From Candidatus Hodarchaeota archaeon (lineage in GTDB: Archaea > Asgardarchaeota > Heimdallarchaeia > Hodarchaeales > Hodarchaeaceae): a stretch of DNA of 36,161 nucleotides. The notes beneath the pieces are model-generated. The model had not been told where the DNA came from. It saw only the letters and a program-made list of their open reading frames with translations, and ran no database searches. The position numbers and the translations under genes were made by a program. The DNA lies in contig JAEOTC010000164.1 of the NCBI GenBank assembly GCA_016840035.1, positions 1-36,161 on the forward strand, in the 5' to 3' direction. Below are positions 1,849 through 36,161 of the stretch, piece after piece; position 1 is the stretch's first letter, and each line of letters starts with the position of its first letter.

Positions 1849-2232
1849 GTGAAGTGGAATAAAATGTTTGAAGAACCAATGACTCATTTGGGACTATTTT
1901 TGATTGCAGGACTAGCAAGTCCTATTGCCATTAAAGTAATTCAGTATCTTTTAGCTCCAAGCATTCCACGATTAAAGCAAGCATCAACTACATATGAGTG
2001 CGGAGAAAAGCCAATTGGTTCGGCACAAATTAGATTCAATGTTCAATTCTTTACGTTTGCTGTTGTGTTTGTGGTCTTTGATATTCTCACAGTTCTTTTC
2101 TTTCTCTGGGCCTACTCATTCCGATTAGTAACGGATTTAACTCCTCTTCTTCTAGTCATGGGAATATTCTCAGCGTTAATACTGTTTGGTGTGTTTTTCT
2201 GGATAAAAAAAGGAACCTTGTCGTGGGTGTAA
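1849..2232 (+). CDS. nuoA: Complex I-like oxidoreductase subunit A
   Basis: YECGE loop, FVVFDI, three TM helices, C-terminal KKGTLSW. The start may be the ATG at 1864. Confidence 0.93.
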   Translation: MKWNKMFEEPMTHLGLFLIAGLASPIAIKVIQYLLAPSIPRLKQASTTYECGEKPIGSAQIRFNVQFFTFAVVFVVFDILTVLFFLWAYSFRLVTDLTPLLLVMGIFSALILFGVFFWIKKGTLSWV

Positions 2233-2235
2233 ACG

Positions 2236-2862
2236 ATGGCTGATTATGATGAATTAAAGGCTCTTGGTGAGCTTGAAATCTACGAACCAATGCCTAATGT
2301 TGTTTTGACTAAATCACGTGGTTTTGTCACAGTGGTTGCAAACTGGCTTAGAAATTGGTCTCAAAGATGTAGTCTTTACCCTGTTTATTTAGGTATGAAA
2401 TGCTGTGCAATCGAAATGGGAGCGACCGCTGCTGGAAGGTATGATACGCAGCGAATTGGGGTATTATTCAGAGCAAGTCCACGACATTGTGATGTACTAT
2501 GGATCAATGGTCCTGTTAGTGTTAAATTTGCTTCACGATTGCGAGATGTTTATGATCAAATGCCAAGTCCAAAGTGGGTACTCGCGACAGGGGAGTGTGC
2601 AATTAGTGGTGGTCCATTTTGGCAAGCACCAACCATTCTAGAAGGTGTTGATCAAGTAATACCCGTTGATGTATATGTTCCTGGATGTCCTCCTCGTCCC
2701 GAGGCGATGTGGGCGGGAATTCATCGTTTACAAGAAAAAATTAAAGCAGATGGTATATTTGTGCCAGAACCTCTGCTTGAAGAAGCCCCGGAATTTTATG
2801 AGCGTGATCCTGCTCCCGTTGACCATCGAATACGTGTAACTAAACCACAAAAGGAAGTGTAA
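2236..2862 (+). CDS. nuoB: Complex I-like subunit B (N2 cluster)
   Basis: [22 protein letters not shown] and VPGCPPRPE motifs. Confidence 0.95.
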
Positions 2863-2864
2863 TT

Positions 2865-3377
2865 TTGGCAGATTCACAAGCTCATCTAATAGCTCTAAAA
2901 GATAAGCACATCAACTTACTTCTTCACTCCGAGATGCTTGAAGAAACCAGAATAAAGATTCAGGTATCTGCAGAGAAGTTACCAGAAATAATGAAGTTTA
3001 TAGCAAATGAGCTTAAATTCCCCTCCTTAGAATCAATTACAGGAGTTGATTGGGAAACTCATTTTGAGGTTGTATATCATATTGATAGATGGGATGGAGA
3101 TCCAACTGTTATTCAAGTTCACGTAAAATTAGAAAACAGAGATAAACCAGAAATTCCTTCAATTACATCAATCTGGGCCTCTGCTAATTGGCATGAACGT
3201 GAACTTTTTGATTTATACGGGATTTATGTCTCAGATCATCCAAATCTGAAACGAATCCTCCTTCCTGAAGATTGGGATGAGTATGAACACAAGGATCCCT
3301 CTGTGCTATATCCAATGCGGAGAAGTTACAAATTACCAGAAAAACCTTTTTCATATAAACCGCAACCTAAGAAGTAA
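2865..3377 (+). CDS. nuoC: Complex I-like subunit C
   Basis: [39 protein letters not shown] and YPMRR motifs. TTG start. Confidence 0.95.
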
Positions 3378-3394
3378 AATAGAGGTTATACATA

Positions 3395-4483
3395 ATGAGT
3401 GAACAAATGATTATCCATATGGGTCCTCAACACCCGGTGAATCATGGATTATGGACTTTAAAAGTCCGAACTGAAGGAGAAAAGGTCATTGATGCGGAGA
3501 TTCTAATTGGATATATCTTTCGAATGATTGAAAAAATGGCTGAATCTCGTCCTTTTAATACTTTCCAACCTCTAGCTGATCGGTTGTGCTATGTAAGTGC
3601 AATGTCTTGGGAAGCGAGTTATGTTCTCGCATTAGAGAAACTTATGGGAATTGAGGTTAGTAAGAGAGCTCAATATTTGCGAGTTATAATGTTAGAATTG
3701 CAGCGAATTGCATCTCATTTAACATGGCTCTCCGCTTTTACTGCGGATGTTGGTATAGTTACAATGCAAGCATTGACATTTCGGGAGAGAGAATACATAT
3801 TAGATCTGCTAGAGCACGTAGCAGGTTCACGAATGATGTATAATTATTTCAGGGTTGGTGGGTTAAAGCATGATATTCCAAAGGGGTTTGAGGAGGATGC
3901 GCGAAACCTAACTCATTTCTTGGATAAGCGTATAGGCGAATATGAGGATATGACTGAGGATTCAAAAGTTTTCAGGTTGAGAACTAAAAATGTCGGAATT
4001 TTGGATAAGGAAACCGCTTTAAATATGGGTGCTACTGGACCAGTGTTGAGAGCATCTGGAGTTAGGGGAGACATAAGAAAGATTGAACCATATTTAGTAT
4101 ATGACGAACTAGATTTCGAGGTTCCAATTGGTACAAACGGAGATTGTTATTCTCGTTTTCGAGTTAGAATGGATGAAATGTTACAATCCACAAAGATCAT
4201 TCGCCAAGCTTTAGACAATCTTCCAGGTGAAGGAGAAATATCGCAAAAAGCCCCAAGAAAACTTCCAAAAGGTGAAGTGTACTTCAGAACCGCTGACCCA
4301 CGTGGAGAAGCTGGTTTCTACATCATCGGAAACGATGATAAAATCCCTTATCGTGTAAAAATTAAATCTCCTGCTTATAGCAATTTAGCTTTGTCTTCTC
4401 ATTTACTTAGGGGAGTTAAAGTCGCAGATATCGCTCCCATAGTGGCTAGTATCGATTTATGCATGGGGGAAATAGACAGATAG
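3395..4483 (+). CDS. nuoD: Complex I-like subunit D (FpoD/NuoD type, not a NiFe hydrogenase large subunit)
   Basis: GPQHPVNHG, DRLCY, ELQRIASHL, TGPVLRASG, GDCYSR and C-terminal SIDLCMGEIDR. No CxxC pairs. Confidence 0.95.
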   Translation: MSEQMIIHMGPQHPVNHGLWTLKVRTEGEKVIDAEILIGYIFRMIEKMAESRPFNTFQPLADRLCYVSAMSWEASYVLALEKLMGIEVSKRAQYLRVIMLELQRIASHLTWLSAFTADVGIVTMQALTFREREYILDLLEHVAGSRMMYNYFRVGGLKHDIPKGFEEDARNLTHFLDKRIGEYEDMTEDSKVFRLRTKNVGILDKETALNMGATGPVLRASGVRGDIRKIEPYLVYDELDFEVPIGTNGDCYSRFRVRMDEMLQSTKIIRQALDNLPGEGEISQKAPRKLPKGEVYFRTADPRGEAGFYIIGNDDKIPYRVKIKSPAYSNLALSSHLLRGVKVADIAPIVASIDLCMGEIDR

Positions 4484-5629
4484 GTGAGATTCATGGGTTA
4501 TGGATTATACGATGGATTGGTTGACATGCTACTTGACTTCTTAGGATTATCTGATTCAATTCAAAGTTCACTTCGTTCTACATTAATTGATTCCCTAGAA
4601 ATGACCACAATTCTTCTTTTTCTTATAGTCAATACTATCATGTTGATCTGGCTTGAAAGAAAAGCTTGGCCTAGGATGATGAATATGAGGGGAATTACAT
4701 TCGTTGATTTTAACTATGGTCACTTCTTTGGTCGAACATGGAAGTTTGGCTTCTTACAGAACATTGCTGAATTTTTGAAATTCTTTTCCAAAGAAGATAT
4801 CGTACCTGAAAAAGCTGACAAATTCCCATTTAATATTGGGTTTTTCGCATTTGTTGTTGCTCCCCCCTTCATGCTCGGGGCATTACTTCCGTTAGGTGGA
4901 GATGCAGTCATTGCTGATCCTGCAATAGGATTTCTCCTTATATTTGCAATTTTTTCATTATATCCTATTGGTGTTCTAGTAACAGGATGGTCTTCAAATA
5001 ATAAATACTCGTTGTTAGGAGCATTTAGATCAGCTGCGCAAATGATTTCCTACGAGATTCCTCTTCTACTCTCTATAGGAGCAGTTGTTATTGTTACGAA
5101 TTCCTTTTCTCTGATTTCAATTGCTGAACAACAAACATTAACTCCATTTGGACTTCCCTTCGCGGTTTTGATGCCTATCGGATTTATAGTTTTCCTAACT
5201 GCGTTAGCAGCCGAAACTGAACGAGTTCCCTTCGATATTCCAGAAGCTGAGGCTGAACTCGTAATGGGATGGCGTACCGAGCTTACAGGATTTCGCTACA
5301 TGATGTCAATGGCAACAGAATATTTTATACTTCTTATAGGAGCCTTTGTTGGAGTTTCATTGTTCTGGGGAGGTTCTTATCTGCCTTTCGTACCTGCAGA
5401 ATTCATGAATGAACTTTTTGAGTTCTGGCCTTTGATTGCAACCTTTATCTTCACTGCAAAGCTGTGGGTCTTCGTATTTCTGTTTATATGGATCAGAAGT
5501 GCGCTTCCAAGGGTTCGAATCGATCAACTCCTTGATATAGGATGGAAAAGGTTGATTCCATTAGCGATAATCAATATTGTTTTTGTAATTGTGGTATATT
5601 TACTCAATCCCTCAATTTATGGAGTATAA
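4484..5629 (+). CDS. nuoH: Complex I-like subunit H
   Basis: WLERK, SNNKYSLLGAFRSAAQMISYE, RVPFDIPEAEAELV and PRVRIDQL motifs. Confidence 0.95.
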   Translation: MRFMGYGLYDGLVDMLLDFLGLSDSIQSSLRSTLIDSLEMTTILLFLIVNTIMLIWLERKAWPRMMNMRGITFVDFNYGHFFGRTWKFGFLQNIAEFLKFFSKEDIVPEKADKFPFNIGFFAFVVAPPFMLGALLPLGGDAVIADPAIGFLLIFAIFSLYPIGVLVTGWSSNNKYSLLGAFRSAAQMISYEIPLLLSIGAVVIVTNSFSLISIAEQQTLTPFGLPFAVLMPIGFIVFLTALAAETERVPFDIPEAEAELVMGWRTELTGFRYMMSMATEYFILLIGAFVGVSLFWGGSYLPFVPAEFMNELFEFWPLIATFIFTAKLWVFVFLFIWIRSALPRVRIDQLLDIGWKRLIPLAIINIVFVIVVYLLNPSIYGV

Positions 5630-5641
5630 ATGGTGATTTGA

Positions 5642-6277
5642 ATGCGTTTAATTCCAAGTTTTTTGATAACTCGTCCAATGGCATACGTTGGAAAAATCCT
5701 CTTCAAGAAACCTTTTACTATGCCTGATGGGGATAGAAGGAATGAAGATACAATTTATTTTCCGGAAGCATTAGCAGAGAAAGGAAAAACAATTCTCGAC
5801 CGTGATTTAAGCTTATCTGATGTATTCAATCATACTCCTCATTTAACTCCCAATGCACGCGGCTTAATCGGTATGAACATTTACAACTGTACTGGCTGTA
5901 AACTCTGTGCCCGTAATTGTCCAAATAAATGCATTGAAATGGTCACAGCTGATCCTCAACCTCCTCATTGGAAGAAAGATAGGCCCTTAGAGCATCCTCA
6001 AATCTTTGCAGGACGGTGTATGTATTGTGGAATTTGTGTGGAGTCATGTAGATTTGATTCACTGTATCATACCCCAGGATTTGATGCAGCAACCAAAGAT
6101 AAGTCAGAACTCTATCATAACTACCAAAAATTATTTGAAATATACCAACTCTATTATCCAGAGGAATATGAAAAGCAAAAGAAAGAATACGAAGAAGAAC
6201 ATGGTGATTTTTACACAAAATTCGATATATTTGCGAATAAAATCAAAAAATCAAATGAGAGAAAGGAGAATGAATGA
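5642..6277 (+). CDS. nuoI: Complex I-like subunit I (2x[4Fe-4S])
   Basis: CTGCKLCARNCP and RCMYCGICVESC ferredoxin motifs; lies between H and J. Confidence 0.93.
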   Translation: MRLIPSFLITRPMAYVGKILFKKPFTMPDGDRRNEDTIYFPEALAEKGKTILDRDLSLSDVFNHTPHLTPNARGLIGMNIYNCTGCKLCARNCPNKCIEMVTADPQPPHWKKDRPLEHPQIFAGRCMYCGICVESCRFDSLYHTPGFDAATKDKSELYHNYQKLFEIYQLYYPEEYEKQKKEYEEEHGDFYTKFDIFANKIKKSNERKENE

Positions 6278-6864
6278 TGGCATACCTAATTCCTTCTGAA
6301 TTATTCGAATTCCTAAATATCATTATCTTGATCATATTAGTCGTTTATATTTTGGGATCGGCTTTCTTAGCCACTCATGTTAAGAGTGTATATCATGCAG
6401 TTCTCTGGCTAGTCTTTTGCTTTTTAGGTATTGCATTGATGTTCCTTCTATACGCTGAATCCTCAATATTATTTGTGATACAAATCATTGTTTATGCAGG
6501 AGGTATTACGGTATTAATGCTCTTTGCAATTACTCTTTCAGGGCGAGAAGCAATGTATGAATCTTCAGGGAGAGAGAAACTCATGGATTGGCGTTTAAGC
6601 GCTGCAGGGGCATTTCTGCTGTTTTTAATCTCATTCTATACAATATCTCAGGTTGGTAAAGCTTTCTGGTTACTCCCAGATTTAACCACTAGAGCACCAT
6701 TTTATGATGCTCAAGGTTTCCGTATTGAAACTGAAGTAATTGGCTTTTTAGCTGAATCAATATTCACAACACATGGTATAACAATTATTGTTTTAGGATT
6801 ATTGATCTTGGGAGCGATGCTTGGAAGCGTATATCTTGTTAAAAAGGAGGTTGAGGATGTATGA
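6274..6864 (+). CDS. nuoJ: Complex I-like subunit J
   Basis: QIIVYAGGITVLMLF motif; five TM helices. Confidence 0.92.
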   Translation: MMAYLIPSELFEFLNIIILIILVVYILGSAFLATHVKSVYHAVLWLVFCFLGIALMFLLYAESSILFVIQIIVYAGGITVLMLFAITLSGREAMYESSGREKLMDWRLSAAGAFLLFLISFYTISQVGKAFWLLPDLTTRAPFYDAQGFRIETEVIGFLAESIFTTHGITIIVLGLLILGAMLGSVYLVKKEVEDV

Positions 6865-7172
6865 GTTTTGATTCCTCCATTTTTATTGGCATTGCTTTGA
6901 TGTTATTCTTGATTGGCTTTGCAGGATTTATTAGATCAAAATCAGCAGTACGAATGCTAATCGCAATTGAACTAATGTTAAACTCTGCAAATATTAATTT
7001 TGCGATCTTTGCACTCTATAATGATATCGGCCTTGTAACGGGACAAGTAGCAGTCATCATTAGTATAGCATTAGCTGCAGCGGAAGCTGCGGTGGGACTG
7101 GGAATAATCCTATCAATTTATAGAAAACATGGTACCGTGGAGGCAACTAGCTTTCAATCAATGAAAGGTTAA
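6861..7172 (+). CDS. nuoK: Complex I-like subunit K
   Basis: IELMLNSANIN and AAAEAAVGLGI motifs. Confidence 0.95.
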   Translation: MSFDSSIFIGIALMLFLIGFAGFIRSKSAVRMLIAIELMLNSANINFAIFALYNDIGLVTGQVAVIISIALAAAEAAVGLGIILSIYRKHGTVEATSFQSMKG

Positions 7173-7183
7173 GGTGAAAAATT

Positions 7184-9478
7184 ATGGCTGATGAAGTAAC
7201 GCATTTAATCTTTGGTAATCTAGCAATTCTAATTCCAGTTATTCCGATAATCGCATCTTTTATCGTCCTTTTCCTTGGTAAATATTATGATAAGAAATCA
7301 CACGGAAATTTATTTGCTCTCGTTGCCACTGGTGGAAGTTTAATCCTTACAATACTTGTTTCAGGTGAAATCATTCTCCGACTACTTTTCGAACATGCTC
7401 ATATTGAAGAGAAAATTGCATTTACTTGGTTCCATGTTGGGAATGTCCATATTGAATTTGGGGTTTTACTTGATCCTCTATCCGCTGTTGTGAGCTTACT
7501 TGTGGCTCTTATTGCTTTTCTTGTAGTTGTTTACAGTAGAAGCTATATGTCCCACGAAGGGTCTCCTCGCTATTATGCTGAAATAAGCATGTTCGCTGCT
7601 GCAATGTTAATGCTTTGTTTCTCACCAAATTTCGTCCAACTCTTTATTGGTTGGGAAATCATGGGTGTTTGCAGCTATTTACTGATTGGTTATTTCTACG
7701 ATAAAGAAACTGTACCAGAAGGACAACCACATCCAGCCTCAGCATCTAAGAAAGCATTCTTAACAACCAAGGTAGGAGATATCTTTTTATTTGCTGGAAT
7801 TATACTTGTTTACCTTACTACGGTTGCTGCTTCTGAAAGATTCCCTGGTTCGGTATATAAGCCCTCATTCGATTTTATTGAAATTAGACACATGATAGAA
7901 GCAGGAGTTATTCCAGGAATTTTCGACCCTGGGTTATTTGTTTTTATTGCATTATTGATCTTTGGTGGGGCTGTTGGCAAATCTGCCCAATTTCCACTAC
8001 ACGTGTGGTTACCAGATGCCATGGCTGGACCTACAACTGTCAGTTGCCTTATTCATAGTGCTACAATGGTGAAAGCAGGAATCTTCCTGGTTGCGAGAAG
8101 CTATTTCGTATTTGAGTTTGCTGATTCGGATGCTATGTTGATTGTAGCTCTCATAGGGGGTATTACCGCAATTATGTCAGGAACAATTGCGCTAGTTCAA
8201 ACGGACATCAAGGGAATACTGGCTTTTTCTACTATTAGTCAGTTAGGGTATATGACTATTGGTTTAGGGGTTGGTGGTATGGGTGTAGCCATTTTTCATG
8301 TCATAAACCACGGTCTTTTCAAAGCTTTGCTCTTCTTATCCGCAGGATCTGTAATTCATGGAGCTGGAACCCAAGATATTCGTGAGATGGGAGGATTACG
8401 AGATAAAATGCCTCAGACTTCAATAGTAATGCTAATCGGATCACTCTCTCTTGCTGGGATTGGGAATGGTTTCTTTAGTAAAGACGCAATTATTCTTCAT
8501 GCACTTGATCATGCGTCACATGAACCACTCATATACCTTGTATGGTTATCATCAGTCATAACAGCATTTCTTACAGCATTCTATATCTTCAGATTATGGT
8601 TTTTAGTATTCCCTGGAGAATCCAGAAAACCAGAACATCATGCTCACGAATCCGACAGCTGGATGACAAGGCCATTATGGACACTTGCTATTGTATCGTT
8701 AGTGTTGACAGGTATCTACCTATTAGGTAATATACCAGTTTTAAACATAAAATTGATTCCAGAATTGAATATTGAACATCATATAACAGAATGGTTGATG
8801 GGAGCTGCCCCACATATTGATAATGGATTGGTGTTTATAACACAACTATCATCAATTATCATTGCGCTTCTTGGGATCGGGCTTGCATATCTCGTATATT
8901 ATCCACGTAAAGGAGCAACAGTCAGTTTTCCAGAAGATGGTACATTTAAATTTGAAATCTCTGAAAAAGATTCAATTATAAGTGTTCAACAGACTTCTCG
9001 CTCCCTTATCCGAGGAATAAAATTAACTTTCTTTGGAAGAGGTATCCAGCGTATCTTAGAAAAAGGCTATTATATTGACGATCTTTATCTTGGTTTAGTT
9101 CATATCATTTATGAATACTACTGCGAAGCTATGAACTGGATCGAAAAGAATGTCTTCGATAATGCTGTGAAATTTGCGGGAAGGATCGGTTACGAGCTTT
9201 GTGGCATTTCTAAATGGTGGGATGATACAGTAATTGATGGGGTAGTACGATTGACTGCAAGAACCTCAGTAGCACTTTGTGGTCTTGCAAAAGCAACAGA
9301 TGAGCGCGTTATTGATAATGGAATCATTCGTGGTTCGGCTAAAGGAGTTATGAAAACTGGTGGATACCTTAGACGTATTCAAACAGGGATAGTAGAAAAT
9401 TACGCACTTTACACATTAATGGGTGCACTTACAATTATTATCATCGGTTTACTAATTGCAGGGGTATTTCCCCTCTGA
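7184..9478 (+). CDS. nuoL: Complex I-like antiporter subunit L
   Basis: FIGWEIMGVCSYLLIG, KSAQFPLHVWLPDAMAGPT, HSATMV and HGLFKALLFL motifs. C-terminal amphipathic helix with RIQTG. Confidence 0.96.
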   Translation: MADEVTHLIFGNLAILIPVIPIIASFIVLFLGKYYDKKSHGNLFALVATGGSLILTILVSGEIILRLLFEHAHIEEKIAFTWFHVGNVHIEFGVLLDPLSAVVSLLVALIAFLVVVYSRSYMSHEGSPRYYAEISMFAAAMLMLCFSPNFVQLFIGWEIMGVCSYLLIGYFYDKETVPEGQPHPASASKKAFLTTKVGDIFLFAGIILVYLTTVAASERFPGSVYKPSFDFIEIRHMIEAGVIPGIFDPGLFVFIALLIFGGAVGKSAQFPLHVWLPDAMAGPTTVSCLIHSATMVKAGIFLVARSYFVFEFADSDAMLIVALIGGITAIMSGTIALVQTDIKGILAFSTISQLGYMTIGLGVGGMGVAIFHVINHGLFKALLFLSAGSVIHGAGTQDIREMGGLRDKMPQTSIVMLIGSLSLAGIGNGFFSKDAIILHALDHASHEPLIYLVWLSSVITAFLTAFYIFRLWFLVFPGESRKPEHHAHESDSWMTRPLWTLAIVSLVLTGIYLLGNIPVLNIKLIPELNIEHHITEWLMGAAPHIDNGLVFITQLSSIIIALLGIGLAYLVYYPRKGATVSFPEDGTFKFEISEKDSIISVQQTSRSLIRGIKLTFFGRGIQRILEKGYYIDDLYLGLVHIIYEYYCEAMNWIEKNVFDNAVKFAGRIGYELCGISKWWDDTVIDGVVRLTARTSVALCGLAKATDERVIDNGIIRGSAKGVMKTGGYLRRIQTGIVENYALYTLMGALTIIIIGLLIAGVFPL

Positions 9479-9489
9479 AAAAATGAAGG

Positions 9490-11055
9490 TTGAAGACAAT
9501 GATATCACAGATATTATTTGGTGAAAATGGAATTGGAGTTTTATCTCTGATTTTTCTCCTACCAATATTAGCAGCTCTACCCACATGGTTTATAGGCCGT
9601 GTGAGAGAAGGATTTGCACGTTATTTGGCTCTACTTGTAAGCTTAGTTACGTTTGCACTTGCTATTTTGGTTTGGATGATGTATGATAACAATCCACTTT
9701 TACCCACAAGTCTACATGTAGGTCATGCAGCTAGCGGACAATGGGTTCTTGTTGAGAACATCGAGTGGATCAAATCAATAGGTATGAGTTATTCTCTTGG
9801 AATAGATGGATTGAGCTTACCTTTGGTTCTTCTAAGTGGATTTGTATTTGTTGTCGCAATTCTTGCGTCATTTAAGGATATCCACGAGAGAGAACCTGCA
9901 TATTATGCAATGATTCTTTTGTTAGAGACAGGTGTTATGGGTACATTCTTAGCAACTGACTTTATTATTTTCTATGTCGCTTGGGAATTAGTACTCGTTC
10001 CTATGTTCTTCCTTATAGGAATTTGGGGCGGTCCAAGACGAGAATATGCTGCAATATACTTCTTCATCTATACACATGTTGCGTCTATGATTATGCTTCT
10101 AGGAATAATCGGCATTTGGCTGGAATCAGCAAAATACACCGTATCTGGAGTGGGTACATTTTCATTTGCAGAATTAACAGGTATTTCTCTCCAATTCGGA
10201 AATGGAGTATTTGTTTTATTGATTTTCTTGGCATTACTGTTTGGGTTCATAGTAAAAGTTCCCAGTGTTCCATTCCATACATGGTTACCTCTAGCGCATG
10301 TTGAAGCACCTACACCTGGATCTATGATTCTGGCAGGACTTTTGCTAAAAATGGGTGGTTATGGATTAATGCGAATGAGTGGTTGGTTTTTACCTGAAGC
10401 CTTAGCTGAGTTTGCTTGGTTAGTTGCCCTCATTGGAGTTATTTCGTTACTTTATGGTGCATGGGTCGCATTAAGGCAAGTAGATATGAAATCCTTAGTC
10501 GCTTACAGTAGTGTAGGACACATGGGAATTGTACTTCTCGGAGTTGCTACTCAGACTTCAGAAGGATTTGCTGGTGCACAATACATGCAAATCGCTCATG
10601 GAATTATCTCACCATTGTTATTCTTTCTAGCTGGAACAATTGGACATTCTGCACACACACGAGATATACCCAAACTCAAAGGTTTTGCAAAAAATATGCC
10701 CATTACTGCAGCGGTTCTTGTGTTCGCCTCATTTGCGAGTGCCGGTCTACCTGGATTAGCTGGATTTTGGTCCGAACTTCTAGTATTTCTTGCCCTCTTT
10801 GATTGGGAAATGAGCTTAGCTTTCATTGGGATCTTTGGAATCGTCTTTACAGCAGCGTATTATCTTTGGATGTTACAAAGAACGGTGTTCGGTGATAAAA
10901 ATCCTGAACTTGCACATGCCCATGACGTTGACCATTGGTCCCAATTCGCTGTACTTGGATTGTTGAGTCTTTTCACCCTCTTATTGGGTATTTTCCCCTC
11001 TTGGCTAATCAATATGATGACTGAAGCAACTGCATTCTTCGCATCTCAATTCTAA
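9490..11055 (+). CDS. nuoM: Complex I-like antiporter subunit M
   Basis: GIDGLS, WELVLVPMF, PFHTWLPLAHVEAPT, LLKMGGYG and AYSSVGHMG motifs. Confidence 0.96.
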   Translation: MKTMISQILFGENGIGVLSLIFLLPILAALPTWFIGRVREGFARYLALLVSLVTFALAILVWMMYDNNPLLPTSLHVGHAASGQWVLVENIEWIKSIGMSYSLGIDGLSLPLVLLSGFVFVVAILASFKDIHEREPAYYAMILLLETGVMGTFLATDFIIFYVAWELVLVPMFFLIGIWGGPRREYAAIYFFIYTHVASMIMLLGIIGIWLESAKYTVSGVGTFSFAELTGISLQFGNGVFVLLIFLALLFGFIVKVPSVPFHTWLPLAHVEAPTPGSMILAGLLLKMGGYGLMRMSGWFLPEALAEFAWLVALIGVISLLYGAWVALRQVDMKSLVAYSSVGHMGIVLLGVATQTSEGFAGAQYMQIAHGIISPLLFFLAGTIGHSAHTRDIPKLKGFAKNMPITAAVLVFASFASAGLPGLAGFWSELLVFLALFDWEMSLAFIGIFGIVFTAAYYLWMLQRTVFGDKNPELAHAHDVDHWSQFAVLGLLSLFTLLLGIFPSWLINMMTEATAFFASQF

Positions 11056-11057
11056 AG

Positions 11058-12626
11058 GTGAATAAAATGAGTGATATCGCCATACTACTCCTTCCGTTCC
11101 TAATTCTAGTGGGAACCATGATCTTATGCCTTCTTTTAGAAGCATTCAATATAGCGAGGAGACTCTCTCCTCCTATCACAATTATAGGAGGTTTTCTTGC
11201 CCTCTATAGTGTTATCTTAGATGTAAATGGTGGTATTACTTATCTTTTTGGAAATCCTACCGATTTTCTAGATACAACTTATGCCGTTGGATTGATGGTT
11301 ATCGATGATTTCTATCGCTTCTTTGCGATACTCTTCCTCATCGTCTTGATCTTTGTAGCAATTTCAAGTAGTGATTACATGAAAACTGATCACAACTTGG
11401 GAGTTTACTATTCTCTTCTAATCTTAGCCACTTTAGGTATGATGATCCTTGCAGCAGCAAACGATTTGTTGTTGATTTTTGTAGCTTGGGAACTGGCATC
11501 ACTTCCAGTGTATTCTCTTGCAGCTTATCAAAAATCTAGAGCGGAAACTAGTGAAAGTGCTTTGAAATTCTTTTTAATTGGTGCGATGTCTTCGGCCTTC
11601 ATATTATTTGGAATTTCACTAGTATATGGTATCACTAGCTCCACTGGAACTTCATCCCCTACCAATCTCGTAGTAGTCATTGCATCCTTTACAGATGTCA
11701 CAAGTTATACTCCCCTCCATATATTGGCGTTAATGTTTCTATTTGTAGGATTTGGGTATAAAATGGCCGCGGTACCATTCCACGCGTGGGCGGTAGATGT
11801 TTATCAAGGAACTCCAACGGCTATTACTTCTTATCTAGCAGCTGGATCGAAAGCAATGGGATTTGCTGCTGTTTTGAGAATTGTGGTTGTTGGCCTTACT
11901 GATCTGGGAGAAGTCTGGGGAATGATATTTGCTGTTTTAGCAGTTTTAACTATGACTCTTGGAAATGTAGTGGCTTTGGTACAAACAAATATCAAAAGAA
12001 TGCTAGCATATTCGAGTATTGCTCATGCAGGATATATTCTAATTGCATTAGCAGCCGCAGCAAACGACCCACTAACAACAATTGCTGGTTATACTGTTGG
12101 AAGTTTTTCAGTAGCAGCTGCAGAGTTCCATATATTGACTCATGCCGTAATGAAGATTGTAGCATTTACAGTTGTCATAGTAGTTGCCTTTTCTATTGGA
12201 AGTGAAGAAATAAACGATTATGCAGGACTCAGAAAGAAGCATCCTTGGACCGTCTTTGCATTGACTATAACATTCCTTAGTCTACTTGGAGTTCCCCCTC
12301 TAGCTGGATTTATCTCGAAATTACTAATCTTCTTCTCAGCAATCTATGCTGATCTGATATGGCTAGCTTTCATTGGAGTTATTAATAGTGCAATATCTGT
12401 CTACTATTACATCCGTGTAATAAAACTAATGATCTTAGATCCCCCTACAGAAGAACTAATCGAATCTCATACAGTTTCTGTTGAATCTATGAGAACATAT
12501 AACATTCCTATGTCATATGCAATGGCAATTGGGATTGGTGTGATACTAATCATACTCATTGGAGTTATTCCAGAAGCAATATTCGACTTTGCTGTTAGTG
12601 GTGCTCAAGGTCTCAACCTTCCTTAA
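11058..12626 (+). CDS. nuoN: Complex I-like antiporter subunit N
   Basis: ESALKFF, KMAAVPFHAWAVDVYQG, KRMLAYSSIAHAGY and GVPPLAGF motifs. Confidence 0.96.
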   Translation: MNKMSDIAILLLPFLILVGTMILCLLLEAFNIARRLSPPITIIGGFLALYSVILDVNGGITYLFGNPTDFLDTTYAVGLMVIDDFYRFFAILFLIVLIFVAISSSDYMKTDHNLGVYYSLLILATLGMMILAAANDLLLIFVAWELASLPVYSLAAYQKSRAETSESALKFFLIGAMSSAFILFGISLVYGITSSTGTSSPTNLVVVIASFTDVTSYTPLHILALMFLFVGFGYKMAAVPFHAWAVDVYQGTPTAITSYLAAGSKAMGFAAVLRIVVVGLTDLGEVWGMIFAVLAVLTMTLGNVVALVQTNIKRMLAYSSIAHAGYILIALAAAANDPLTTIAGYTVGSFSVAAAEFHILTHAVMKIVAFTVVIVVAFSIGSEEINDYAGLRKKHPWTVFALTITFLSLLGVPPLAGFISKLLIFFSAIYADLIWLAFIGVINSAISVYYYIRVIKLMILDPPTEELIESHTVSVESMRTYNIPMSYAMAIGIGVILIILIGVIPEAIFDFAVSGAQGLNLP

Positions 12627-15660: not shown

Positions 15661-16266
15661 ATGTCTCTACTTAGCAGTCTAAAAAGGGTTAAAAAATTAA
15701 AGAAAATTCTCATACTTGGTTCAGGCGCGGTTGGGAAATCTAGTATGTTGAAAGTTTTTAAGGAATCTGCCTGTTTAAATGATATGAATGATACAGAGTC
15801 GCATTATAGTCGTACACTATTCCTTGAATTAGAATCTTTCAAAGCATCCCAAATAGCCAATACGGATATTGAAGGAACATTTCATATGTACGATCTCGCT
15901 GGTCAGATTGACCTCCCGATTCATGCCACACGTGATATTGCTGATACTGTCCTAGGCTCAGTAGATTTAGTCGTTCTGATGTTTGCCAATGATAATACTC
16001 AGTCTTTATTTGATATTATCAACTGGATGAAAATTATTGATAATTATTATGATAATATTGCCATAGATAAACCCAAACCGAAATATATTCTAATTAATAA
16101 CAAAATTGATATTCCAAGTAGTACAGATCACAGTATTATCGATGATATATTGAAAAATGAAAAACGATTTGTGACTTATTTTCCAATGAGCTGTATGAAT
16201 GGTGAGGGAGTTTCTAATTTTAAAGAATGGTTGATTAGCTATTGTTTTGGAGAGGATCAGAGATGA
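15661..16266 (+). CDS. Ras/Rab-superfamily small GTPase
   Basis: G1 GSGAVGKSS, G2 Thr (YSRTL), G3 DLAGQ, G4 NKID, G5-like MSC. No CAAX box. Confidence 0.9.
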   Translation: MSLLSSLKRVKKLKKILILGSGAVGKSSMLKVFKESACLNDMNDTESHYSRTLFLELESFKASQIANTDIEGTFHMYDLAGQIDLPIHATRDIADTVLGSVDLVVLMFANDNTQSLFDIINWMKIIDNYYDNIAIDKPKPKYILINNKIDIPSSTDHSIIDDILKNEKRFVTYFPMSCMNGEGVSNFKEWLISYCFGEDQR

Positions 16267-29421: not shown

Positions 29422-30027
29422 TTGACCTTGCTAGAAAATATCAGACTTATGAAGTCTTTACTACGAACAGGATGGATCCGTTCTGGTGTGCCAAAATGTG
29501 ATATTGAATCTTTGGCGGATCATTCTTGGGCTGTAGCTGCGTTAACATTCCTTTTTTGCTTAGAAGAAAATGCCGTAAGAGAAAAACACGGAAAAAAACC
29601 TCTTCTAAATACTGAAAAGGCAGTTTTATTCGCCTTGTTTCATGATTTTCCAGAATCAGAATACATGGATATAGATAAAAGCATATATAATTTAACAGAA
29701 TCAGAAGTGACATCTCAATTCCTTCATAGTGTTGAAGAACAGGCTATTGGAAAGATTAGTGGGCGCCTTGATAGTGGTCTTAGAATGGAATTTCAAAAGG
29801 TTCTCGTTAATGACAACACAGCTGAATCAAGGATTGCTAGGGTTGCAGATCATATTGATGTCATGCAACAAGCGATTTGTTATAGGGATAAGAATTGGAT
29901 TGCTGAAGAACAAAGCTCCTCCTTCCATAAATATGCACTAGAAGAACTCCAAAAATACCTTGAAGAATTTATGTTTTTACGATCCTATCTTGAAAGAAAT
30001 ATGTTTTTCGAATCTGTCAGAGAGTAA
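29422..30027 (+). CDS. HD-domain 5'-deoxynucleotidase (YfbR/HDDC2-like)
   Basis: LRTGW, ESLADHS, FHDFPE...DI and ADHID motifs. Confidence 0.88.
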   Translation: MTLLENIRLMKSLLRTGWIRSGVPKCDIESLADHSWAVAALTFLFCLEENAVREKHGKKPLLNTEKAVLFALFHDFPESEYMDIDKSIYNLTESEVTSQFLHSVEEQAIGKISGRLDSGLRMEFQKVLVNDNTAESRIARVADHIDVMQQAICYRDKNWIAEEQSSSFHKYALEELQKYLEEFMFLRSYLERNMFFESVRE

Positions 30028-30035
30028 CTAGATTT

Positions 30036-31034
30036 TTACTCCTGCAACCCAGTAAATTCAATTACTTTTTTGATAAATTCAATACTTGTTGCCATAAAGT
30101 TTTCTGACTCAGGAAGTTTAATTCCCAATTTAAAAGCATGCGCTTTTTCCAATAACGGATAATAGGGTGAAAATTCTGACTCATTTCCCCAAACCTCAAT
30201 GATTTCTTCATGGATATCTGGTTTCACCAGATCCATTGTTACTGATTTTACACCCGCTTTATAGCAAGACAAACCAAATGCAATATCAATTATAGAAGCC
30301 CCTATGAGATAATCTAGTTCATCTTCGGGTAAATCTTCCTCTTTTGCCGTATTAATAATTTCATCAATTTGAGAAACAGCTTCTGCTATGAGCAATTTTG
30401 CTGATCCCTGTACCTGCTCATCCGTAAATTCGAGGTCTTTAAAGAGATTCTCCCCAGCAAGAAGTTCTCCATCTTTAGCATAGAGAGCATGAATATGTGT
30501 AAAATCTGGACCAAATTTCTCTAGTTCGGCAATATCATCCTCTTTTAGGATCATTAGATCGAAGATATGGGCAATTTCTGGTGTAATAATCTCTTCTGCA
30601 ATATTTGATATGATTTCAATTGCTTTTTCTGAGTCTTTTTCCGCAGTAAGGACGATTAAGAAATTAATATCACTTTCTCCTACCACATGCAACCGTTTTG
30701 CATAAGATCCGTAAATCATTAGACTTTTAATGTCTTCTTTCAATTCAGGAGTAGCTAAGAGTCTCTGAGATACCAATCTTGTTAACATTTCATACTCTGA
30801 GGCTTCATCGACTGGAATTCCGGCTCCAGACTCACTTAAATCCTCCTCCTCCATAGAGTTTACTTCACCAATTACTTCTTTGATTAATGCGACCGAAGAT
30901 CTTACTTGAGCTTTAGCCTCTGGATTTTCTGCTATTACTTGCTTAAGAACTGAAGTTAATGATGCTTCACCTTGATCGAGTCGTACTTGCATTGCATATT
31001 CTTTTATAAGCTCTCGTAACTCTGATTCTTCCAT
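30036..31034 (-). CDS. Fusion: archaeal GluRS-N-terminal-like domain + Pol-beta superfamily nucleotidyltransferase + helical C-terminal domain
   Basis: ATG at 31034 (MEESELRELIKEYA...GEA...VLKQVIAENPE.K.....LIKEVIGEVNSM); NTase motif IYGSYAK......SDINFLIV; later FDLMIL and GELLAG. Confidence 0.75.
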   Translation of the reverse strand: MEESELRELIKEYAMQVRLDQGEASLTSVLKQVIAENPEAKAQVRSSVALIKEVIGEVNSMEEEDLSESGAGIPVDEASEYEMLTRLVSQRLLATPELKEDIKSLMIYGSYAKRLHVVGESDINFLIVLTAEKDSEKAIEIISNIAEEIITPEIAHIFDLMILKEDDIAELEKFGPDFTHIHALYAKDGELLAGENLFKDLEFTDEQVQGSAKLLIAEAVSQIDEIINTAKEEDLPEDELDYLIGASIIDIAFGLSCYKAGVKSVTMDLVKPDIHEEIIEVWGNESEFSPYYPLLEKAHAFKLGIKLPESENFMATSIEFIKKVIEFTGLQE

Positions 31035-31348
31035 GATAAGACCTCTGATGATCAAAAGAGACCCGTTGAGTCTATTTTTTCACTGATGAATCTAGATTTT
31101 ATAAAGATTCGATTGAGATAGAAATCTAGTGGATTCGATTATTATTAAATTTTCAAAGCTTCAATACCATTCTTAAGCTTATTCAGTTATGCATCAAAAA
31201 TATTGGGAAAGTAAAAGGCAATTTTCAATGGTTTAAAGCTGTCAACACTAAATACTCAAATAATATCACGATAAACAAAAATAGCAGAATTACAACTGAA
31301 ATCAACCCAAAGATCTTCTTACATTACCGCAATACGTTGGTATGAGTA

Positions 31349-35475: not shown

Positions 35476-36161
35476 TCATTTTTTGAATCCTGGGAAGAAA
35501 ACTAGTTGCTCAGTTTTGTTATGAATACAAATCCGATTTGAGATGAGAATTTCTATTAAAGAAATGATGCGAGATTCATCCCAAGGGACTAATTGTCGAA
35601 TTAGAGAAATTGATATCTCACCATAATCACTAATCCCATCAGAAATCGCGGAAAGGAAAGTTCTAACTTCACTTGAGAGTGAAAATGGTTCAAAGATATA
35701 TCCTCCTTTCTCCGTGTGGATTATTCCTTCTTTTTTGAGAACATTGAGAGCCGTTTCAATATCTTGAATATCACACTGCCACCACGGTCGGTGCTTATGA
35801 AACAGTGAAGAAATTTTGTGAAGAGGAACTGATTCTAAGTTAACTCGTTGGTATGCCAATCCAAATGAAATAAGATCTGAGGCCAATCGCTGATAAAAAT
35901 CTGTTTTGCCTTTAAAATTCGGCCTTTTAAACAAAGAATCTGGTAAAAGAGACACAGGTAAATTTGAAGACAATTTCAAGTCTAATAAGTAAGTAGAAAA
36001 TTCCTGTGGAAAATAACCAATTTTGGAAGTTTCTTTTAATCCCTTAGTGAGTAGAGACTTCGCTTCTTTATCAGCTGAGTCAGAAATATTTTTTAATTTT
36101 GCAGCTAGTTTATCATGAAGCTCTTTACTTGATTTTGGATCTGGAATGAAGTTGACCTCCA
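35476..36161 (-). CDS. EAP30/Vps22-Vps36-like ESCRT-II winged-helix protein (partial, N-terminus beyond the window)
   Basis: The frame is open to the window edge (EVNFIPDPKSSKELHDK...). DFYQRLA...N...V.L......R......DIETAL..L...G followed by LS......L.......G.IS...I.....W...R....IE.L mirrors the two WH domains of Vps22. Confidence 0.72.
   Translation of the reverse strand, partial: EVNFIPDPKSSKELHDKLAAKLKNISDSADKEAKSLLTKGLKETSKIGYFPQEFSTYLLDLKLSSNLPVSLLPDSLFKRPNFKGKTDFYQRLASDLISFGLAYQRVNLESVPLHKISSLFHKHRPWWQCDIQDIETALNVLKKEGIIHTEKGGYIFEPFSLSSEVRTFLSAISDGISDYGEISISLIRQLVPWDESRIISLIEILISNRICIHNKTEQLVFFPGFKK

Follow-up and report, generated by a model that had tools for sequence, protein, structure and literature searches.

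Domains appended to aminoacyl-tRNA synthetases normally sit on synthetases or amidotransferases, and a gene from the Hodarchaeales, the archaeal order closest to eukaryotes, raises the question of what such a domain might do on an enzyme fold of a different kind. The gene lies on the minus strand, at 30036..31034, of a 36,161-nucleotide stretch of DNA from Candidatus Hodarchaeota archaeon (contig JAEOTC010000164.1, positions 1 to 36,161, assembly GCA_016840035.1), which is called the window here. It encodes a protein that joins an N-terminal domain of the archaeal glutamyl-tRNA synthetase (GluRS) type to a nucleotidyltransferase (NTase) of the Pol-beta superfamily. An initial annotation had proposed a tRNA-modifying enzyme; the fused protein more closely resembles an adaptor or regulator that binds nucleotide. 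The same annotation regarded the architecture as unfamiliar from described proteins, and indeed it was described in no paper found and is covered by no Pfam or NCBIfam model.

The open reading frame (ORF) extends over 30036..31055 on the minus strand, with 339 amino acids and a TTG start. The ATG at 31034 was taken as the start because the 79 full-length homologues all begin MEES/MDE... at the same Met. The resulting protein is organized as follows, with the basis of each assignment in parentheses:

30036..31034, minus strand: whole coding sequence, 332 amino acids plus the stop codon at 30036-30038; the start is the ATG at 31034.
30831..31034, minus strand: N-domain, residues 1-68, four-helix and YqeY-type, paralogous to the N-terminal domain of archaeal GluRS (NCBIfam, hhalign and AlphaFold2, AF2).
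30801..30830, minus strand: acidic linker, residues 69-78, fast-evolving, with a predicted local distance difference test (pLDDT) value below 50 (AF2 model and non-synonymous substitution rate, dN).
30435..30800, minus strand: Pol-beta-type NTase domain, residues 79-200 (Pfam Polbeta/NTP_transf_2; structural match to AAD(9)/AadA).
30663..30713, minus strand: active-site loop YGSYAKRLHVVGESDIN, with G109-S110, D122 and N124, an Asn that replaces the second carboxylate (alignment).
30558..30560, minus strand: codon of D159, the third carboxylate, in HIFDLMIL (Asp in 36/37 fused proteins).
30039..30434, minus strand: helical C-domain, residues 201-332, HEPN-like as in AadA/KNTase, with K271-P-D273 and H299-x2-K302-x-G304 conserved (structure match and conservation).

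The initial annotation had likened the first ~65 residues to the N-terminal extension of archaeal GluRS, and profile comparisons bear this out. In NCBIfam, residues 4-68 align with positions 3-68 of the archaeal glutamate--tRNA ligase model PRK04156 (E 3.3e-7 with the whole protein, 2.5e-8 with the domain alone), and the domain also matches positions 3-64 of TIGR00463 gltX_arch (E 2.3e-4). When GluRS genes were taken from 11 Heimdallarchaeial relatives and their first 85 residues excised for a profile, hhalign of 23 fused N-domains against these 11 termini gave an alignment of 67 columns, uninterrupted by internal gaps, at a probability of 97.6% (E 4.4e-12), and the joint alignment was collinear. 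The GluRS profile also retrieves residues 4-85 of Methanothermobacter thermautotrophicus GluRS (PDB 3AII) at E 1e-19, and in genuine GluRS this domain is covered by no Pfam model. The described counterpart is the appended 'YQEY' domain of non-discriminating GluRS in archaea (M. thermautotrophicus residues 1-85, PDB 3AII; PMC2978374), with ~65 homologous residues and the same length and helix pattern. On these strong sequence profiles, rather than on structure, the N-domain is homologous to that of archaeal GluRS. It is attached to an NTase and not to a class I core: the archaeal GluRS models (PRK04156/TIGR00463) score the whole protein at 29-33 bits against a cut-off of 516, and Pfam yields no tRNA-synt_1c match, in keeping with the earlier observation that no HIGH/KMSKS core follows.

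The fused domain has kept the fold positions G22, A24, S28, P38 and N59, which correspond to the G-x-A, S, P and V-N positions of GluRS. Its surface has changed in other respects. The N-A pair invariant in GluRS is replaced, and the G-K-A and K-S positions have become G-E-A and T-S, with Glu in place of the Lys of G-K-A in 31 of the 37 fused proteins. The domain is also mostly acidic (-3 to -4 in most sampled members, 0 in two), in contrast to the neutral-basic GluRS N-termini (-1 to +6 over 85 residues; 0 to +4 over the first 62). The name that the literature gives to the GluRS N-domain places the fused domain, too, in one class with the YqeY tRNA-affinity modules, namely the C-terminal Yqey domain of Deinococcus radiodurans GlnRS, the GatB/GatE tail and the eukaryotic GlnRS N-domain. 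The YqeY-type domain raises tRNA affinity in D. radiodurans GlnRS (PMC1865053), and the GatB/GatE tail has been implicated in D-loop recognition, with a G-K-A-N-P pocket of GatB, flanked by basic residues, proposed to hold the tRNA D-loop (PMC2811023). By analogy, that pocket may be equated with the G-K-A of GluRS. Unlike in these modules, the basic residues are not kept in the fused domain, its match to Pfam GatB_Yqey (PF02637; hidden Markov model positions 73-127) stays under the cut-off (17.4 bits against 27; E 0.0043), and its structural match lies within the noise. The N-domain modelled alone with AF2 reached a pLDDT of 86, with helices at residues 3-21, 26-36, 38-46 and 48-60. Foldseek with this model gave no match at E <=0.001. 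In the VIA wide structure search the top hits were unrelated small helical proteins (Z up to 6.3), and YqeY (8xje; Z 4.6, 51 aligned, root-mean-square deviation, rmsd, 2.2) and the human GlnRS N-domain (4ye6; Z 4.6) stood at ranks 32-33 among unrelated small helical bundles. Sequence searches of the PDB returned calpain EF-hand helices alone for the N-domain profile (E 0.3) and no match at E up to 10 for the whole protein, and a word-limited search of the N-domain profile against longer proteins retrieved the same family alone and no other architecture.

Beyond the acidic linker, the Pol-beta motif reported earlier is present and reads as given above. Pfam places residues 99-167 just under its cut-offs (Polbeta, E 9.3e-6 and 26.2 bits against 26.9; NTP_transf_2, 17.5 bits against 21). 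In the AF2 model of the whole protein (pLDDT 80), residues 77-332 superimpose on residues 5-260 of AadA/AAD(9), with Z 14.5-15.6 overall: Z 15.6 for AAD(9) 6xz0 (218 aligned, rmsd 3.4), and Z 14.9 with 224 aligned for both AadA 5g4a and ANT(3'')(9) 7uy4. The ANT(4')/KNTase structures, such as 1kny, match more distantly (Z 10-11, 225-228 aligned), and Foldseek gives E 1.3e-4 for this fold. The protein shares with these enzymes the NTase plus helical C-domain arrangement, the GS motif, and two of the carboxylates, the first and the third. It differs from AadA, AAD(9) and ANT(3'')(9) in its low identity (9-16%), in the Asn at the second carboxylate and in the extra YqeY-type N-domain. The NCBIfam ANT_9 model matches only residues 97-181, at 19.9 bits against a cut-off of 340, and the fusion gene stands in a conserved chromosomal housekeeping block, not in a resistance context. 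ESM Atlas features point to generic NTP_transf_2 clusters only, and NCBIfam cca_archaeal reaches merely E 0.06.

The C-terminal part had been described as an all-helical tail without the RxxxxH motif. It is indeed all-helical, residues 205-332 resemble HEPN domains (Z 9-10.5), and the HEPN Rx4-6H RNase motif is absent from 35/37 family members, the protein of the window having no Arg at all beyond residue 200. It is not an additional module, however: because it matches the HEPN-like C-domain structurally, it is the regular second domain of AadA/KNTase-type enzymes. A relationship to the MNT-HEPN (MntA-HepT) systems is visible at the level of fold, with the NTase resembling the MNT antitoxin 8xeo (Z 8.8), the C-domain resembling HEPN toxins (Z 8.8-9.5) and NCBIfam MntA_antitoxin matching at E 0.023. 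Unlike those two-gene systems, the protein is a single chain, as in KNTase, it mostly lacks Rx4-6H, and its gene occupies a conserved locus without sign of mobility. PADLOC detected no defence-system signature, with generic MNT/CD-NTase-type matches at 14-27 bits only.

The active site combines strict conservation with one departure from the superfamily pattern. G109-S110, the hG[GS] motif, is found in all 37 fused proteins, D122 in 35 (Asn in the other two), K271 in 36, and Lys or Arg at position 302 in all 37. The third carboxylate suggested earlier in FDLMI is present as D159, which is Asp in all but one of the fused proteins and near-invariant across the superfamily. The replacement of the second Asp by Asn, likewise pointed out earlier, proved fixed: N124 occurs in 37/37, so that the [DE]h[DE]h carboxylate pair of the Pol-beta superfamily is lacking throughout. 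In the wider alignment, two fused lineages have N-x-N (S-N-I-N, S-N-L-N) and two fused members are without the third Asp (F-N-L, F-N-P). Standalone copies are mostly D-x-D. To our knowledge, every characterized Pol-beta NTase has two carboxylates in this motif, and these hold the two catalytic metals. Changes of D to A or N at NTase carboxylates are standard inactivating mutations, HalB D21A/D23A among the structural matches being an example. The constancy of D-x-N in the fused proteins, together with the further carboxylate losses, argues against a standard two-metal transferase. MiD51 (PMC3926961) provides an example of an NTase fold that is non-catalytic but binds nucleotide. It has an incomplete carboxylate set as well, and for both proteins the proposed role is to bind nucleotide and not to catalyse, for the fusion as a prediction from its conserved residues; there is no sequence relationship between the two beyond the superfamily fold.

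The architecture recurs in many genomes. Full-length homologues form 79 clusters at 54-88% identity in NCBI, JGI, ENA and Logan assemblies, the named ones belonging to Hodarchaeales/Heimdallarchaeota, and an exhaustive phmmer search added fused relatives at 29-35% identity (Hodarchaeales) as well as standalone proteins of ~250 amino acids without the N-domain. A search with the core model found the NTase core in 76 of 83 Heimdallarchaeia genomes. Hodarchaeales genomes hold two copies, one fused (frames of ~335-350 amino acids) and one standalone (~264 amino acids); the other families hold a single standalone copy. An unrooted maximum-likelihood tree of the core places all fused proteins in a single clan (100/99), which groups with the Hodarchaeales standalone copies (98/97), apart from those of other families. 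Since the fused copies make up one clan, the most economical history has a single duplication, either inside the Hodarchaeales or at their base, and then a single fusion. The standalone paralogue of the same genome (268 amino acids; G000 C111:4305-5060, L027:4272-5078, minus strand) has the canonical S-D-L-D; it is flanked by a gene for a 173-amino-acid protein of no known family, preceded by a ZIP transporter gene, and by a metallophosphoesterase gene. In family f7 the standalone orthologue (L033:7497-8579) is an open frame of 360-386 amino acids with ~9 residues before the core, and it seems to carry a different, C-terminal extension.

This recurrence across Asgard genomes leaves practically no chance that the fusion is an assembly chimera of one assembly or a mis-called ORF. 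The fusion is found in single-contig genomes among the 79 clusters, including G010, a single contig of 4.9 Mb, and the ratio of non-synonymous to synonymous substitution rates (dN/dS) is ~0.06 in the domains flanking the junction. Against an orthologue 88% identical, dN/dS is 0.056 for the N-domain, 0.026 for the NTase domain (the lowest) and 0.067 for the C-domain, approximate values given a dS of ~1.5; all three folded domains are under strong purifying selection. The linker region, residues 61-79, evolves faster, with a dN of 0.31 compared with 0.05-0.08 in the domains. The protein is very acidic, as had been stated, with an isoelectric point of 4.35 and a net charge of -41 (-0.123 per residue), against a median of -0.012 per residue for the proteins of the window, of which the next most acidic reaches -0.049. 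Net charge ranges from -30 to -41 in the family. Acidity and the D-I-N sequence, given as caveats in the initial annotation, turned out to be its most informative points.

The translation genes of the host and its relatives help to define the status of the N-domain. No GluRS was found in the host assembly, which is 87% complete, and its GlnRS-type gene matches the synthetase model only from position 95 onward. This GlnRS-type synthetase (G000 C69:65380-66900, L001:1417-3159) has 580 amino acids, no N-terminal YqeY-type domain and a Lys-rich C-terminal tail. The relatives of the genus carry a complete GluRS whose match begins at model position 3-5 and which keeps its own N-domain, and many of them also have the GlnRS-type gene and the fusion. 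Because the GluRS of the relatives retains this domain, the N-domain of the fusion is an extra copy and not a displaced one. A GatB/GatE-type amidotransferase, suggested earlier as a partner, does not hold as a general one. The GatB/GatE-type YqeY domain scores above the curated cut-off in nine genus members; it was not found in the host genome or in G002, G004, G005, G006 and G011, which are incomplete genomes (74-93% complete). Four of these five hold an N-domain match, and G005 holds a frame of fused length. G014 has a sub-threshold GatB_Yqey match alone, and this falls on the fusion's own N-domain. A fused orthologue co-folded with GluRS from its own genome (G002) scored 0.00 against a mark of 0.32, which gives no evidence either way.

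Synthetase gene content is itself varied in this group. Within the genus, GlnRS-type and GatE-type genes occur in overlapping, patchy sets. The same GTDB genus contains two GluRS types only ~30% identical (L003, L004, L005 and L007 versus L010, L011, L013 and L014), and the HIGH signature reads P-L-H-I-G-N in one type and Y-L-H-I-G-H in the other. Other Heimdallarchaeia families possess a second, longer GluRS-like paralogue of 650-665 amino acids.

The fusion gene is monocistronic, divergent from a TatD gene and close to an S25e gene, and its 3' neighbour is the following:

29422..30027, plus strand: gene of a YfbR-like HD phosphohydrolase, convergent with the fusion gene (Pfam HD_3/YfbR-like).

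The two stop codons are 8 nt apart (30027-30036). This gene order, with the tail-to-tail adjacency to the HD gene, is kept in all 8 genus loci examined, and the HD, S25e and TatD order is essentially kept in fused relatives of ~30% identity, with a 3-nt gap in P0081 and overlapping ends in P0090. One of these loci, that of P0116, has two genes inserted between NTase and HD, one for an RsmB-like methyltransferase and one Ost5-like. The coding ends of the HD and NTase genes overlap in one distant relative (L026:1056-1064), and the two transcripts probably overlap at their 3' ends. The upstream gene varies among relatives (SHMT-like or PALP enzyme) and was rejected as a partner because it is not conserved. 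Standalone paralogues were never beside the HD gene in the loci examined. In other Heimdallarchaeia families, the standalone orthologues lie in a conserved same-strand operon (L029-L036 and L038; for example, L030:7814-9232 and L034:2676-4922), in which the D-x-D NTase is followed by a KaiC-like ATPase-fold protein of ~220 amino acids (PF06745/DUF835/MEDS matches) and, in 5 of 9 loci, by a ~250-amino-acid protein without a family. This operon may hint at an ancestral partner of the NTase. A KaiC-like partner for the fusion itself was discarded, having been absent from the fused loci and not found in the host genome with one protein query. The neighbourhood names no partner for the fused protein. 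Elsewhere, the window contains a complex I-like operon (roughly 1849-12626), genes for leucyl-tRNA synthetase (LeuRS) and proteasome subunits, and genes for a small GTPase of the Ras/Arf family (15661-16266) and for an ESCRT-II-like protein of the EAP30/Vps36 family (35476-35979), the latter two being typical Asgard eukaryote-signature genes.

The analysis shows the following course. A widespread Heimdallarchaeia two-domain NTase of the AadA/KNTase-like kind was duplicated in the Hodarchaeales lineage, giving an order-specific paralogue; one copy gained, once, a YqeY-type domain of GluRS through an acidic flexible linker, and the same fused lineage fixed Asn at the second metal-ligand position (D-x-D to D-x-N). 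Because the GS motif, two carboxylates and the Lys/Arg of the C-domain are conserved, the remodelled site would still bind nucleotide, two-metal transferase chemistry being probably lost or greatly weakened. The YqeY-like domain would dock the protein onto the tRNA elbow or D-loop or onto a component of the translation apparatus; with the charge reversal in G-K-A and a net charge of -41, its ligand would more probably be a basic protein than naked RNA. The fused protein may accordingly be put forward, tentatively and at somewhat short of even odds, as an adaptor, sensor or regulator that binds nucleotide, has attenuated catalysis or none, and is docked through its YqeY-like domain. Several points weigh against this proposal. 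D-x-N also occurs in the standalone relatives P0095, P0096, P0104 and P0114, so the fused clade is not alone in having this change. A strongly conserved loop with an invariant Asn could equally denote a working, modified catalytic site, the Asn side-chain oxygen being able to ligate Mg2+. Structural searches with the modelled N-domain yield no clear match, and the domain retains conserved basic residues (R7, R18, K31, K41, R45 and K52), through which it may still contact RNA. The function, moreover, has been deduced from sequence alone.

The catalytic possibility deserves to be spelled out. The fused protein would then be an active nucleotidyltransferase, an AMPylase or related enzyme, whose substrate is a protein or small molecule, as it is for AadA/ANT or MntA; N124 would be a metal or substrate ligand, and the YqeY-like domain would serve targeting or regulation. 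The conserved GS, D122, D159, K271 and K/R302, the lowest dN/dS of the protein in its NTase domain and a core that superimposes on active adenylyltransferases at Z ~15 all fit such an enzyme, which explains the extreme conservation of the loop as well as an adaptor does; that N124 is invariant and does not drift suggests that Asn itself is in use. We nevertheless consider it the less likely of the two, with perhaps one chance in several, since the characterized enzymes known to us use two carboxylates and are inactivated by such changes, divergent fused members have lost a further carboxylate, and the gene neighbourhood offers no substrate candidate. In a tRNA-directed variant, in line with the initial annotation, the YqeY-like domain would bind the elbow or D-loop of tRNA-Glu/Gln, allowing the tethered NTase to modify or cap that tRNA. 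The tRNA-affinity role of YqeY-type domains and the D-loop role of the GatB/GatE tail (PMC1865053; PMC2811023) speak for it, as do the retained fold positions of the N-domain, and a linker of ~20 residues may be long enough to reach from the elbow to the acceptor end. It is rendered improbable by the overall charge with acidic N-domain and linker, by the loss of the GluRS N-A pair and of the Lys of G-K-A, by the D-x-N site, and by a core that resembles small-molecule ANT enzymes instead of CCA-adding enzymes or MenT. The least probable of these functional readings is that the protein works together with the YfbR-like HD phosphohydrolase, the one writing and the other erasing a modification, or the one sensing and the other hydrolysing a nucleotide, in the manner of the NTase and HD domains of GlnD. 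The tail-to-tail adjacency, persistent down to ~30% identity, and the separation of the standalone paralogues from the HD gene are what this pairing has in its favour; being convergent, the genes are not co-transcribed, both proteins are acidic, and the argument is one of synteny in a block syntenic as a whole (TatD, S25e, Ost5-like), so that adjacency may be inherited gene order, which is moreover interrupted at P0116.

If the adaptor or regulator favoured here is extended to a physiological role, the fused protein could be a regulator dedicated to the Glu/Gln branch of translation, in which the tRNA-sensor domain of a synthetase was captured onto a remodelled nucleotide-binding NTase. Such a protein would sense the nucleotide state of the cell and exert its effect on tRNA-Glu/Gln, GluRS or some other part of the translation apparatus, either as a competitor for whatever the GluRS N-domain binds or through single-metal nucleotidyl transfer with the help of the invariant Asn. 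In this full form the idea is speculative, and we hold it to be rather improbable. The family nevertheless offers a clean natural case of duplication followed by domain capture and active-site remodelling, and the canonical D-x-D paralogue in the same genome constitutes an internal control for distinguishing a pseudoenzyme from an altered enzyme. A synthetase domain long kept on an unrelated fold, in the lineage nearest to eukaryotes, suggests that nucleotide sensing or transfer is connected with the Glu/Gln arm of translation.

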